Positions 13,390 to 39,509 are shown, counted from the first letter of the stretch. The stretch is 64,000 nucleotides of DNA from Candidatus Saccharimonadales bacterium (GCA_041751215.1 JBGSXW010000002.1:67123-131122), one strand, 5' to 3'. Numbers and translations are program-made. Notes: generated by a model from the sequence alone, not told the origin.

Positions 13390-13997
13390 TAAAATACCTG
13401 GCGCCCTTCCAGGGCCCTAACTAGTGTGGTTTGGTCAGCGTACTCAAGTTCAAGATTAGCTGGCAGGCCGCGAGCCAGACGGGTAATTTTAAGCTTGCTA
13501 TCGCCAATCTTTTTTCGTAAGTAGTGAGCAGTAGTTTCACCCTCGACGCTAGAGTCGATGGCCAGAATAAGCTCGCTTACTTTGTCGTCTTTAATTCGCT
13601 TTACTAGTTCGTTAATTCTAAGATGCTCGGGGTTGATGCCATCGATCGGTGAGATCAAGCCGCCCAAGACATGATAGGTGCCTTTGTACTGACCGGTTTT
13701 TTCTAAAGCCACAACGTCTAGCGCATCTTCAACGACTGCAATCTGCGACTTATCACGTGAGCTGTCACTGTAGAGCTTGGAAATTTTTTCACCAGGCTCA
13801 ACAAAGAAAAACGTTTTTTCGCAGTAACTAACTCCTTCGTGAAGATCGTCCAGAGCCTTTGCCAGTTGCTTGCTGGAGTTATCTGGAGACTGCAGCAAAT
13901 GAGTCGCGTATCGTTCTGCCGTCCGAGGGCCAACGCCTGGCAAAACTCCGAGCTCCTCTATCAACTGAACTAAAGCCTTGGGCAGAATTGACGACAT
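13389..13997 (-). CDS. recR: recombination protein RecR (Cys4 zinc finger degenerate)
   Basis: LPGVGPRTAERYATHLL HhH motif and a Toprim region. Only one Cys where the C4 finger normally sits. Confidence 0.8.
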   Translation of the reverse strand: MSSILPKALVQLIEELGVLPGVGPRTAERYATHLLQSPDNSSKQLAKALDDLHEGVSYCEKTFFFVEPGEKISKLYSDSSRDKSQIAVVEDALDVVALEKTGQYKGTYHVLGGLISPIDGINPEHLRINELVKRIKDDKVSELILAIDSSVEGETTAHYLRKKIGDSKLKITRLARGLPANLELEYADQTTLVRALEGRQVF

Positions 13998-14012
13998 ATT
14001 AGTAGCTTGCTG

Positions 14013-14300
14013 CTAGAGTCCTAGGTTCCCGAGCTGCCCCATTACTGGTTTCATTTTTTCAGCTGCAACTTGCTGGCTTCGAACAATTGCATCTTTGACT
14101 GCAGTTTCAACCCAGTCTTCTAGCTCAGAAATGTTATCAAGATCGACTTTGTCTGGATCGATTTCGACCTTCTTGATTTTTTGCTCGCCGTTGATGCGAA
14201 CCACAACCGCGCCATCCCCGGCCTCGACTTCAATGTGCTCGTTGGCGAGTTCCTTTTGCAGTTTTTTCATTTTCATAACTAATTTGGCTTGGTTTAACAT
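14013..14300 (-). CDS. ybaB: YbaB/EbfC nucleoid-associated protein
   Basis: 95 aa. KMKKLQKELANEHIEVEAGDGAVVVRINGEQKI; lies in the dnaX..recR neighbourhood. Confidence 0.8.
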   Translation of the reverse strand: MLNQAKLVMKMKKLQKELANEHIEVEAGDGAVVVRINGEQKIKKVEIDPDKVDLDNISELEDWVETAVKDAIVRSQQVAAEKMKPVMGQLGNLGL

Positions 14301-19968: not shown

Positions 19969-20000
19969 AGTAGTCTCCTTAAATTCTTAATTATGGGAAC

Positions 20001-20154
20001 CTGTTTCCTAAGCCCATTTCAGCCTAAAATCATCCTAGTTGGCTGCAAATAGGCTCAAAACTCGTCAACGTATCTTTTAGATATGCTTTCTCGTTTTACG
20101 CCCTTTTCACTCAACAAGATCTGATTTTACTTCTGAAAGCGACTTAGGAAACAG
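20001..20154 (-). ncRNA. candidate structured RNA / repeat element, copy S2, inserted in the rplJ-rplL spacer (unclassified)
   Basis: 12-nt perfect terminal pairing CUGUUUCCUAAG/CUUAGGAAACAG, reaching 15 bp with one G-U on the minus strand. Homologous to 39115-39273. Confidence 0.5.
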
Positions 20155-20159
20155 ATTCT

Positions 20160-20693: not shown

Positions 20694-20744
20694 ATGACTA
20701 GTCCTCCTTATTTTAAGTAGTATTGATCTGTTAAGGTGGCCAAT

Positions 20745-20773
20745 TAAAAAATCTTTGGCTTATTTACCAAAGA
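20745..20773 (-). terminator. rho-independent terminator upstream of rplJ
   Basis: TCTTTGG / CCAAAGA stem with an 8-nt loop; U6 tract on the minus strand. Confidence 0.55.
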
Positions 20774-20891
20774 CTTTAATAAAAACAAGTTGTTTTTACC
20801 TCGGTAGCGCTCTTAGTGAACCGGAGTCCAAGCTACTGTCTTTGGCGGATAACTTGTTAACGATAACAGATCGGTCATCAGATTGCAATGC

Positions 20892-22767: not shown

Positions 22768-25110
22768 CTAATTATTGGCGTTAGATTTATCGAGCTGCTT
22801 AAGTTTGTACTGGGTGTACTTTTCAGCCGCAAGACGAGTTAGTTCGTCGTCTTCGCCTTTATTTACAAAGATCATAGAATCAGCAATCAGCGGATGAACT
22901 TCGGCTAAAACATCGTGCATTTCTTTAACTAGCTTTCGGTAACCAGGGTGACCCTGAGGTGAAGTCCTTAGTTCATGAAAATGAAAGGCTTCGCGGGCAT
23001 TGTAGGCTATCTTCCAGCGCATTTTGTGTCCCAGCAAAGTGGCATACTGCGCTTCTAGGTGATAGCCGGCCGACTGCAATTGGCTATAAAGCTCGTAGCT
23101 GATGTCAAAGCAGGATTCAAACAAATCAGATAACCCCGCGTCCTCTACCAGTTTAGGCACTTCGTATCCGTATCGAGGGCTTAGCTCCTGCCAGTTTAAG
23201 TCGTTAACCATTCGATGGCGCTGTAGATCGCGGAAGATGCCGTAGTCGCAAACTAACTCCCATGAGTAATGGGCTTGCTCTAGCGCTCTCCCGGGCTTGT
23301 GCCGACGGTTAAGTCGCTCGCCCATATAGGCCTTAAAAGCATTGAGTTTTTCGTCGTATGTCCAGCTATCAACTTCTTGTTCGATTTGCTCGAGGGGCAG
23401 GCTTGAGTGATCAAACAGCATCTGCGGCAACAGGTCGAGTTCATTCTTAGGGTAGTGGCTAATTAGTTTTACAGCCTTAGTTTCAGGACTAAGACTTTGC
23501 GGCAGCTTGCTGTCGGCGAGCTGTTTCATTGTCTTGTTGGTGTTGGCGCGGTAAGCCACCCAAGCCCCCCCGCGGCCTGGCTTATCGGCTCGCTCTAGAA
23601 ATACCGGAATAATCTTTCGAGCTTCTTTTAGCAGCTGGTCGCCGGTGTCGCGAGCTTCTTGCAGCTCGTCGCTTTGCAGATGCATTATTAAGCTCTCCAG
23701 CGCCTGGCCAGAGGCAAATATACCCACAGTCGCCTTGGTTGCTACCGGTAGGACGTTTCGGATGGCGTCACAAGCCTGAGCCCTTGTTGCGCCCTTCCAG
23801 GCTCCGTCGCGCTCAGCCTCTGGGGTATTTGAGTTGTTGCGAACGTAGTCTGTCAGCTTGCGCACCATGGTTGAGTAGGTGTCAAAAATTTTGTCCATTG
23901 ATTCTTCGTAGACTCGAGCCGTGTCGGCATCGAGGTTTTTAGGCGTGAAGTATTTATAGTTACCTCTAGAATCCTTTTGATCGAAGAATATATAGCGCGT
24001 GGACTGCTCTAGGTAAGCAGCCAGTCGGCCCCACTCGAGCTTTTTGGTCAAGATGTTAGAAGCGTTCTCGACTACGAGATGCAGTCCAACCAGTTGCTGA
24101 ACCGAGTCATCGCCGTAAGCCGTAATGACGCGTTTCAGCAAACCTTCGTCCTTACCTTCGCCCTCGGCGAACTCGTCTAGAAGAGTTACGCGCATGTCAT
24201 CGCCTCGGCGACTCAACCTTGCCATAGCAGCAGCTATAGTGGCTGCCGAGAACTTATCAGTAAAGGCATACACGTCGCCGTCTAGGTCGGTCACGGCGTC
24301 TTTTAGCAGCTCACGGCCATTTGCCGTCATCTTGAACCCGCCGTTGTCGGCTTTTTCTACGTATTTCTTTACGGGCTTGGAGTTATGTTTTTTTTTAGCA
24401 TCGCTTTGGTTGCTCGGTCCTTTTGATTTGCCTTTTGATCGTTTTGGTAGCATTGGCTCCAACCTTTCCCATATCATGTTGCTAACTTTTTGTCGGCTCA
24501 GCTCGTTAGTGTCTTTAACGCCGCTGATCTGAACGAATCCTTTTGGAAATAACTGACACAACTCTTCATATACTTGAATCGAGCGTTTAATGTGGCTGCT
24601 GTCTTCTTGATGAATGTCTTTTTTGTCGTCATCGCGTTGTTGGTACCGCTTTTGGGCAATCTCAAAGGGAACCGTTAGGACTATATTAAGATCGGGCCGC
24701 GGGATGCCGAGGGTTTCAAATTCCAGATTGTCGAGCCAAGTAAAGTAGCCAAGACGTTCCTGCGCATTCTTAAACTTGGTGCCTTGGTGTGCCATGTTTG
24801 ACCCGACGTATCGATCGGCCACCACAACCTTGCCCTCGGCTAGCGCCGTCCGAATGTCCTTGGCGGCGTGGTATCGGTCGAGAGCAAAAAACAAGGACCC
24901 GGTGTAAGGGCTAACATCATCTGCTTGCCCGTACTTTCCGTCTAAATATTGACGGATAAAAAAAGAGGAATCTTCTGAGTAGCGCGGAAAGTCGATGGTA
25001 TAGACTTCTCGACCCTCGGCCCGCAAGCGGTCAATTAACAGCTTAGTCTGCGTCTCTTTGCCAGAGCCGTCTGAGCCTTCGATGACAATGAATATTCCTC
25101 TATCGGACAT
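22768..25110 (-). CDS. fusion protein: N-terminal thymidylate kinase plus C-terminal (tandem) ThyX-like flavin-dependent thymidylate synthase
   Basis: N-terminus FIVIEGSDGSGKETQ..DRY (Tmk). C-terminal ~530 aa carries LQRHRMVNDLNWQELSPRY (ThyX RHR..S.RY-type) plus an upstream degenerate half. Confidence 0.7.
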   Translation of the reverse strand: MSDRGIFIVIEGSDGSGKETQTKLLIDRLRAEGREVYTIDFPRYSEDSSFFIRQYLDGKYGQADDVSPYTGSLFFALDRYHAAKDIRTALAEGKVVVADRYVGSNMAHQGTKFKNAQERLGYFTWLDNLEFETLGIPRPDLNIVLTVPFEIAQKRYQQRDDDKKDIHQEDSSHIKRSIQVYEELCQLFPKGFVQISGVKDTNELSRQKVSNMIWERLEPMLPKRSKGKSKGPSNQSDAKKKHNSKPVKKYVEKADNGGFKMTANGRELLKDAVTDLDGDVYAFTDKFSAATIAAAMARLSRRGDDMRVTLLDEFAEGEGKDEGLLKRVITAYGDDSVQQLVGLHLVVENASNILTKKLEWGRLAAYLEQSTRYIFFDQKDSRGNYKYFTPKNLDADTARVYEESMDKIFDTYSTMVRKLTDYVRNNSNTPEAERDGAWKGATRAQACDAIRNVLPVATKATVGIFASGQALESLIMHLQSDELQEARDTGDQLLKEARKIIPVFLERADKPGRGGAWVAYRANTNKTMKQLADSKLPQSLSPETKAVKLISHYPKNELDLLPQMLFDHSSLPLEQIEQEVDSWTYDEKLNAFKAYMGERLNRRHKPGRALEQAHYSWELVCDYGIFRDLQRHRMVNDLNWQELSPRYGYEVPKLVEDAGLSDLFESCFDISYELYSQLQSAGYHLEAQYATLLGHKMRWKIAYNAREAFHFHELRTSPQGHPGYRKLVKEMHDVLAEVHPLIADSMIFVNKGEDDELTRLAAEKYTQYKLKQLDKSNANN

Positions 25111-38849: not shown

Positions 38850-39038
38850 CTATTCGTTTCGACCTAAGTTCTTTTTGGTCTCAACGTATTTAGCATGCTT
38901 GCGAGCAACTGGGTCGTACTTCTTTAGTTCGAGCTTGTCTGGAGTATTTTGTGTGTTCTTTTTAGTTACGTACGTGCGATGACCGCTCAGTTCGCTGACT
39001 AAGCCGACAATCTTGCGCTTTGCACCCTTTTTGGCCAT
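38850..39038 (-). CDS. rpmG: 50S ribosomal protein L33 (Cys-free form)
   Basis: [48 protein letters not shown]. Confidence 0.85.
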
Positions 39039-39096: not shown

Positions 39097-39114
39097 CTGG
39101 AAATATGGGCAGTA

Positions 39115-39273
39115 GCCTGTTTGGCAATTCGCTTTTAGTTATAAAATCATGAGTTTTGTGCGAAAACGATGAAGAACGAGGAGGCATCCGCCAGTCGGCG
39201 GACGTTGACGAGTTCTGAATTGTTTGCAGCCAAAAAGAGTGGTTTTAGGATAAAATGGAATTATCAAACAGGC
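39115..39273 (+). ncRNA. candidate structured RNA / repeat element, copy S1 (unclassified)
   Basis: Closing helix GCCUGUUUG/CAAACAGGC. Collinear homology to 20154-20001 with compensatory changes in 3 helices. Confidence 0.5.
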
Positions 39274-39307
39274 TACATTAGTTTACAATGCTCTGGTACT
39301 GTTTTAT

Positions 39308-39382
39308 GCCTCGATAGCTCAGTGGTAGAGCGCATCCATGGTAAGGATGAGGTCGCGAGTTCAATCCTCGCTCGAGGCTCCA
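39308..39382 (+). tRNA. tRNA-Thr (GGU), CCA encoded
   Basis: GCCTCGATAGCTCAGTGGTAGAGCGCATCCATGGTAAGGATGAGGTCGCGAGTTCAATCCTCGCTCGAGGCTCCA. Confidence 0.9.
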
Positions 39383-39473: not shown

Positions 39474-39509
39474 ATGAGGTCGCGAGTTCAATCCTCGCTC
39501 GAGGCTCCA
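39474..39509 (+). repeat. perfect 36-bp duplicate of the tRNA-Thr(GGU) 3' end (att-like)
   Basis: 39474-39509 is identical to 39347-39382 (ATGAGGTCGCGAGTTCAATCCTCGCTCGAGGCTCCA). Confidence 0.9.

Follow-up and report, generated by a model that had tools for sequence, protein, structure and literature searches.

The DNA at positions 39,115 to 39,273 of the window, by which is meant the whole 64,000-nt stretch of Candidatus Saccharimonadales sequence that was analysed, is probably one copy of a non-autonomous DNA transposon (MITE) of about 160 bp, which inserts at the dinucleotide TA and duplicates it. The element has the features by which a MITE is recognised: it does not code for protein, it stays below the limit of about 300 bp, it ends in inverted repeats and shows a target-site duplication, and its dispersed copies vary in presence and absence. 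Taken together, the inverted repeats, the TA duplication, the lack of coding capacity, the dispersed copies and the polymorphism lead to this identification. On this reading, two peculiar, highly structured spacers at central translation loci in a Saccharibacteria genome are transposon insertions, not regulatory RNAs, and a MITE family is documented in the CPR/Patescibacteria, whose genomes are generally said to contain few mobile elements. A survey of MITEs in 183,232 genomes does not mention the CPR/Patescibacteria in its main text (PMC11602168), and the literature searched contained no report of hairpin-forming, TA-duplicating MITEs in CPR bacteria.

The window contains two diverged copies of the one element: copy B on the plus strand (39113-39275, its flanking TAs included) and copy A on the minus strand (19997-20158). 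A sequence-only reading had already set 39115-39273 against the minus strand of 20154-20001, and this match is real and collinear. In pairwise alignment copy B runs end to end with the minus strand of 19997-20158, and a model-based alignment gives 67.5% identity between the copies over 160 aligned bases. The shared strings quoted in that reading are present, and ACGTTGACGAGTT and TTTGCAGCCAA occur twice each in the window, only within copies A and B.

Copy B itself is a 159-nt imperfect palindrome (39115..39273, plus strand), with covariance-model scores of 164.8 and 147.5 bits. Its left terminal inverted repeat, GCCTGTTTGGCAATTC (39115..39130), pairs with the right one (39258..39273), which contains TTATCA at 39261-39266; helix 1 shows covariation across the family at 17 of 18 pairs. 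The flanks read gggcagTA/GCCTG...CAGGC/TAcatt, so that a TA on each side (39113..39114 and 39274..39275) forms the target-site duplication; TA makes up 5.7% of the dinucleotides in the window. Between the repeats lie the two arms of a conserved core. The 5' arm, GUGCGAAAACGAUGAAGAACGAGGAGGCAU (39158..39187), is near-invariant family-wide and holds a GA/GCA internal-loop module together with the GAGGA half of a double tandem G-A motif, and the 3' arm, ACGUUGACGAGUUCUGAAUUGUUUGCAGCCAAAA (39202..39235), is the most conserved stretch in the family and served as the basis of the collection scans. The arms enclose a variable apical hairpin, CCGCC-aguc-GGCGG (39188..39201), whose sequence is different in each copy while its pairing is kept. 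All of these features are on the plus strand. The neighbours of copy B are the gene for tRNA-Thr(GGU) downstream (39308..39382, plus strand), which lies outside the element, and the divergent rpmG gene for ribosomal protein L33 upstream (38850..39038, minus strand).

Copy A (19997..20158, minus strand; covariance-model scores 146.4 and 135.9 bits) occupies the rplJ-rplL spacer in the sense orientation. It begins one base past the rplJ stop codon, and a 28-nt spacer bearing a Shine-Dalgarno (SD) site separates it from rplL; its conserved core, with the variable apical hairpin AUC-uaaaa-GAU, is at 20038..20112 (minus strand). The three closest relatives, whose L10 proteins are 75%, 67% and 66% identical, have the same gene order, and their rplJ-rplL spacers of 29, 26 and 99 nt give no model match and lack the element. 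Read against these spacers, copy A is a clean addition of about 160 nt.

The empty spacers bear directly on the idea that the element is a vertically inherited cis-regulatory leader or processing signal of translation-apparatus genes (rplL, tRNA-Thr, def, rpsB). Several copies do adjoin ribosomal protein or tRNA genes, directly 5' of start codons. However, the orthologous spacers of close relatives are without the element, other neighbours are functionally unrelated (pilM, recJ, holB, a membrane protein), and the orientation is mixed, all of which makes vertical inheritance of a leader highly improbable. In addition, a separate canonical ribosomal protein L10 leader (Rfam RF00557) is found upstream of rplJ at 20737-20863 on the minus strand, scoring 47.1 bits against a gathering score of 44; the rplJ operon therefore already has a known regulatory RNA, which is distinct from the MITE.

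Further copies were sought with a scan pattern built from the two most conserved strings, and two covariance models, R1 and R2, were used to split members from chance matches. This yielded eight further insertions, or nine sequenced copies, two of which are orthologous. The scan of the genome collection gave the Saccharibacteria MAG copies L003 (= L062) and L006+L004 (= L019), and metagenome contigs gave more: L033 (= L036), L046, L013 (nearly identical to L045), and L028a, L028b and L028c (= L065), with the orthologue of L028b carried by L085. There are thus two copies in the 64-kb window, three in the 13.7 kb of L028 and one in the 20 kb of L085. In the MAG CAYLWZ01, the 3' end of contig L006 and the 5' end of contig L004 (also L019) break and overlap inside the element; the repeat evidently breaks up assemblies made from short reads, and copy numbers derived from MAGs are therefore probably underestimates. 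The L028 lineage belongs to the Patescibacteria and not to the Saccharibacteria, since the named S2 proteins closest to its own, at about 55% identity, come from Komeilibacteria, Kerfeldbacteria and Parcubacteria. As judged from these sequences, the family covers the Saccharibacteria and at least one other lineage of Patescibacteria, that is, at least two CPR lineages.

By the covariance models, L001, L002, L005 and L007, together with most of the 63 pattern matches in metagenomes, are chance matches. No member was found among viral contigs (nine pattern matches, none of which fits the model), phage records or plasmid records. L032 and L034 share a 9-mer with the inverted repeat by coincidence: in both it falls in an unrelated element, found in a high-GC organism, that is about 375-390 bp long, has 22-nt terminal inverted repeats (AGAGTGCCTAACCTAATGAAAC), and lies at 458-850 in L032 and at about 5000-5390 in L034. 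In Rfam, neither window copy matches a family at the gathering score or at E values up to 10, the best of the noise matches being Ms_IGR-2 (14.7 bits, gathering score 45) and CRISPR-DR39 (20.8 bits, gathering score 39).

The insertion process can be seen in filled and empty versions of the same site. L028 has three copies within 7 kb, beside holB, recJ and rpsB. The syntenic contig L085, whose S2 is 93% identical to that of L028, has the recJ copy only, and the contigs L086, L087 and L088 (S2 88%, 79% and 74% identical) have no copies. At holB the empty sites have the sequence ...ggtattcttaag(at)TATG..., and in L028 the filled site is ...cttaagttgTA[ GACCTTTTG...CAAAAGGTC ]TATGgaagg. Likewise, the recJ site is aacataTA[GACC...GATC]TATGcc when filled in L085 and aacacTATGcc when empty in L087. 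The empty sites hold one TA and the filled sites two; therefore TA is duplicated on insertion. In L087, the Fer4-recJ interval in which L028 and L085 carry the MITE contains a gene of the 23S_rRNA_IVP/bAvd family (13745-14128).

The flanks of the remaining copies are less uniform. TA stands on both sides at five of the ten insertion sites (copy B, L003, L028a, L028c, and L028b as read in its L085 orthologue), the background TA frequency being 0.056-0.105. It is found on one side only in L013 and L033 and on neither side in L046 and L006/L004. The flanks of copy A are ambiguous, with a CATAA direct repeat 2-3 nt outside the helix, the left copy of which supplies the rplJ stop codon. A loose terminal consensus can be written as TA-GACCTTTTG...CAAAAGGTC-TA; in the window genome the ends are GCCTGTTTG...CAAACAGGC. 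The ends are similar within a genome, GACCTTTTG being found in L028, L033 and L085, and GCCTGTTTG and AATCTGTTTC in the window. The missing or partial TA flanks at five of the ten sites, including copy A and the copy in a 23S gene, count against the MITE reading.

The element lies in the sense orientation relative to its neighbours in copies A and B, L003, L033 (in the order tRNA-Trp, element, def), L006/L004 (upstream of pilM) and L046. It is opposite to the flanking genes at four of the ten sites, namely L013 and the three of the one contig L028. The expectation that homologues would sit in the sense orientation beside tRNA or ribosomal protein genes is thus not supported, for the neighbours also include pilM, recJ and holB, and one copy is within a 23S gene.

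The two window copies each fold into a single long imperfect hairpin, a rod of about 160 nt, at -71.4 kcal/mol for copy B (z = -9.35) and -65.0 kcal/mol for copy A (z = -9.41). None of 200 shuffles folds as well as copy A or B, and the opposite strands of the two copies reach only about -49 kcal/mol. Between copies A and B, 36 of the 59 consensus pairs are identical, 14 have changed on both sides and still pair, 5 have changed on one side and still pair, and 4 are broken in one copy. In the alignment of ten family sequences, which was fitted to a covariance model and hence leans toward the structure, 95.1% of the pair cells are standard pairs and double changes occur at 38 of the 59 pairs; no shuffle out of 500 reaches this level of pairing and covariation, and pairing is only 32-49% when the structure is shifted by 1-3 columns. 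An independent MAFFT/RNAalifold alignment still has double changes at 32 of 47 pairs. The compensatory changes described in the sequence-only reading are real. The helices it named (b, e, the apical hairpin and the closing helix) all exist as well, with its S1 and S2 labels swapped: CCGCC-aguc-GGCGG, AGAAC/GUUCU and UUUUA/UAAAA belong to the copy at 39 kb, and UUUCAG/CUGAAA and AAAAC/GUUUU are the other variants.

Among the copies compared, the element is 158-163 bp long and the terminal helix is 16-23 bp in every one. Variation in the apical hairpin and in the basal helix is compensated. Conservation is highest in an asymmetric core, with a 5' arm GAGCGAAAAU..GAAGAACGAGGA and a 3' arm GUUGACGAGUUCUGAA..AUUUGCAGCC; as read from the alignments and folds, the core appears to consist of two GA/GCA internal loops and the double tandem G-A motif CGAGGA/GACGAG. 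No conserved open reading frame was found in the copies, for the frame that follows an AUG varies between them and copy A has no AUG. A small peptide gene was rejected on the same ground, that the frames differ between copies. Known RNA classes, compared by eye with the consensus, were also set aside: 6S RNA (the central bubble is absent, and the element occurs in several copies); SRP RNA (the context of the GCAGCC string is wrong); the L10 leader (the genuine one is the separate structure at 20737-20863); a C/D-box or k-turn (tandem G-A pairs are present and the 3-nt bulge is absent); the hammerhead and hairpin ribozymes (the cores do not match); and the 23S GTPase-associated centre (the likeness is at the level of hexamers only). 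An integron attC site was likewise rejected, since there is no terminal R''/R' consensus and the centre is not variable but conserved.

The fold is specific to one strand, as had been proposed from a single U-G pair. Across the family there are 38 G-U/U-G cells against 5 A-C/C-A cells, and in each copy the sense strand is more stable by 10-23 kcal/mol. Purines prevail at the unpaired positions (A 181, G 136, T 71, C 39). This bias is alike in copies that lie antisense to their host genes and in those that lie sense, so co-transcription with a host gene does not explain it.

Selection on the rod structure is supported, and the covariation is strong. Such properties would be expected if the copies were independent trans-acting small RNA genes, each with its own promoter and encoding a structured RNA of about 160 nt. 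The strong covariation, the strand-specific G-U pairs, the purine-rich loops and the conservation of internal-loop sequences across distant lineages all speak for small RNA genes, and so do a good promoter (TTGAAG-16-TATAAT) about 20 nt upstream of the L006 copy and a terminator-like hairpin that follows the L013 copy. The locations of the copies argue the other way. Copy A begins one base past a stop codon within an operon, another copy is inside a 23S rRNA helix, and the L028 copies abut start codons and have opposite-strand coding sequence upstream. Furthermore, a scan of the copies revealed no promoter or terminator common to them, synteny is not conserved, and the TA duplication points to insertion events. 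Small RNA genes are therefore quite unlikely. Of the earlier conclusion that selection acts on an RNA structure in a small ncRNA family, the first part stands, in that this is not random repeat DNA; the second gives way to mobile insertion, TA duplication and empty orthologous sites. Annotation pipelines should accordingly not take strong covariation within a hairpin as sufficient evidence of an ncRNA gene.

The strand bias could also reflect movement as DNA. A hairpin moved in single-stranded form by an HUH-type enzyme (a His-hydrophobic-His nuclease), as in REPIN/RAYT systems and IS200/IS605-derived palindromes, would have its fold as the enzyme's substrate, and the full-length hairpin, the conserved asymmetric loops and a one-strand bias of G-T over A-C that is independent of host gene direction would all follow. 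However, elements mobilised by HUH enzymes make no target-site duplications, and a TA duplication is seen here; in addition, the sequence examined contains no RAYT or TnpA gene and the copy number is low. There is accordingly little to commend HUH mobilisation, and its probability must be put very low.

A TA-duplicating MITE remains the favoured identity. TA duplication is the hallmark of the IS630/Tc1-mariner superfamily, the IS630 family included, and the duplication found at the filled sites is of this type. The step in which a trans-acting, TA-targeting transposase moves the element is well supported; the enzyme, encoded elsewhere, would presumably be an IS630/Tc1-mariner-type transposase of the DDE class (catalytic Asp-Asp-Glu). 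Within the 770 kb of sequence examined there is no longer element with the same ends, no transposase and no autonomous partner, and ten window open reading frames compared with Pfam gave housekeeping genes only, with no transposase.

Once inserted, the element would have consequences at the level of RNA. Since the whole element is an imperfect palindrome, RNA transcribed across it would fold into a very stable rod of about 60 pairs. This rod would be unable to pair with neighbouring sequence and so would not interfere with ribosome-binding sites or with the folding of rRNA, and it is a plausible substrate for RNase III. In compact, gene-dense genomes, selection probably retains only those copies that fold on themselves, which would explain the compensatory changes.

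Two further properties of the element count against the MITE reading. Across lineages the core is better conserved than the inverted repeats, the opposite of what a typical MITE shows, and cut-and-paste transposition needs neither a full-length hairpin nor a strand-specific G-U bias. Several accounts of the core may be considered. It could be a binding site for a host factor or a transposase cofactor, by analogy with the IHF site in the core of Correia elements, or it could be a processing signal or other function at the level of RNA; another option is that the conservation of the core and the strand bias are inherited from master copies that were selected in a single-stranded state. A more specific proposal is that the MITE carries a functional structured-RNA module, the core of which would serve RNase III, or some other RNA-binding protein, as a signal for recognition or processing and would yield a self-excising or self-insulating RNA. 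The basis for this proposal is that the core has been kept in both CPR lineages despite the divergence of the inverted repeats; it is tentative and somewhat doubtful. If it were true, the element could colonise rRNA helices, operon spacers and the 5' leaders of essential genes in ultra-small genomes, and dispersed MITEs would be linked to the unexplained short insertions, free of ORFs, in the rRNA genes of CPR bacteria.

The copy in L046 places the family within rRNA. There the element is a 154-nt insertion, in sense, at the tip of the helix 98 loop of a 23S rRNA gene (around positions 2820-2826 of the Rfam LSU model), and is followed by the 5S gene. In being a stem-loop of about 154 nt at the tip of a 23S helix, this member is like the known 23S intervening sequences (IVSs). 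The classic IVSs occupy helices 9, 25 and 45, and they are not known to form dispersed genomic repeats with target duplications. Many uncharacterised, ORF-less insertions, mostly under 200 bp, have been described in CPR rRNA genes; of 66 rRNA insertions in Saccharibacteria, 64 are short ones that are not introns and carry no endonuclease, and RNase III-type intervening sequences have been suggested as the nature of the short ones (PMC11270868). The element might then be a family of rRNA IVSs, excised from 23S by RNase III and spread to mRNA and tRNA spacers by recombination and not by transposition. The sense position in helix 98, the frequency of short uncharacterised insertions in CPR and Saccharibacteria rRNA (PMC11270868) and the rod shape would all fit. 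Only one of the ten insertion sites is in rRNA, however, and both window copies are outside it; moreover, the rRNA copy is among those without TA flanks, and the TA duplication at non-rRNA sites points to transposition, so that an origin as an IVS is unlikely. Conversely, the MITE family offers a concrete and testable candidate origin for some of the short rRNA insertions in CPR bacteria. The same 23S gene (L046 1-1900) also contains a group I intron, close to the sarcin-ricin loop, and upstream it appears to be interrupted by further insertions as well. The intron matches Rfam Intron_gpI at 1249-1428, below the gathering score, and the interrupted 23S sequence was read directly; a weak match to the element model at 1162-1312 is an AT-rich hairpin in this intron and not a member of the family.

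As analogues, the Correia, RUP and ERIC elements may be compared with this MITE. Correia elements, like the element described here, insert at TA and duplicate it. They are about 155 bp long, carry inverted repeats and a conserved core, have promoters at their ends, and form an mRNA hairpin that is bound or cleaved by RNase III; the IHF site in the core possibly serves synapsis of the ends (CREE/NEMIS of Neisseria; PMC2649163; PMC10969869). Both elements are non-coding, often lie 5' of genes and are present in some strains and absent from others, and Correia ends together with native sequence create promoters (PMC2649163; PMC10969869). Nevertheless, the hosts belong to different phyla, no sequence relationship is seen and the terminal sequences differ, so Correia can serve only as an analogue. 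The CPR element forms a rod over its full length and has a core more conserved than its ends, whereas Correia elements form a rod at the ends only; the CPR core is asymmetric with tandem G-A loops and no identified IHF site, whereas the Correia core has one; and there are few copies per genome in contrast to 100-250.

RUP of pneumococcus is likewise a short, non-coding and highly base-paired MITE with inverted repeats, for which mobilisation in trans by an IS630-family element (IS630-Spn1) has been proposed (PMC3049150). RUP is 107 bp long and its inverted repeats match a known resident IS, whereas the CPR element is about 160 bp and no matching IS is known. The ERIC (or IRU) element of enterobacteria is an imperfect palindrome over its whole length of about 127 bp; it is found in transcribed intergenic regions in both orientations at low to moderate copy number, and it affects transcript processing and stability (PMC10969869). 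ERIC differs from the CPR element in its hosts and sequence, and its transposition mechanism and target duplication are unclear, in contrast to the evident TA duplication seen here. According to Wilson and Sharp in 2006, ERIC sequences are reportedly more conserved than the neutral expectation.

The position of the ends relative to start codons suggests how an insertion might be tolerated. In L028a, L028b and L085 the terminal ...AAAAGGTC puts AAAGG 4 nt upstream of the start codon. Where the element lands on the TA of T/ATG, as at holB and recJ in L028 and L085, the duplication would restore the start codon, and the AAAGG at the end of the element is positioned like an SD site, so that element ends may supply expression signals. 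The element thus tolerates, and perhaps exploits, insertion exactly at start codons, since the duplicated TA gives back the ATG and the end of the element contains an SD-like AAAGG. Upstream of holB, the sequence TTGTTA-17-TATTCT-6-ATG is conserved in L085 (17040-17100), L086 (6320-6380) and L087 (16360-16410), a spacing which suggests that holB mRNA is leaderless in this lineage of Patescibacteria. The insertion in L028 displaces this leaderless-looking promoter by 160 nt.

Promoter-like sites are also found around copy B. At its 3' end, TTATCA (39261-39266) and TACAAT (39284-39289) face tRNA-Thr, and a second site (39096-39069) faces rpmG; these are consensus matches only, of which 4 were found against 1.4 expected. 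Copy B would in this way supply a -35-like TTATCA to tRNA-Thr. Should they prove real, copy B would be flanked by two divergent promoters and lie outside the tRNA-Thr precursor. Co-transcription of the element with tRNA-Thr, raised in the sequence-only reading, is consequently doubtful, given that the promoter-like site for the tRNA, as found in the consensus scan, is at or after the 3' end of the element. Downstream, the 3' part of the tRNA-Thr(GGU) gene (39347-39382) recurs at 39474-39509 as an exact 36-nt direct repeat, 127 nt away, and looks like an att-site scar from integrase-mediated insertion or excision at a tRNA. The Logan contig L084, from the same organism, ends within tRNA-Thr(GGU), which hints at assembly ambiguity or at population heterogeneity at this locus. 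Elsewhere in the window, a 780-aa open reading frame (22768-25110, minus strand) encodes an apparent fusion of thymidylate kinase and ThyX, and the same fusion (PF02223 + PF02511) is found in the three closest relatives, L008, L009 and L010.
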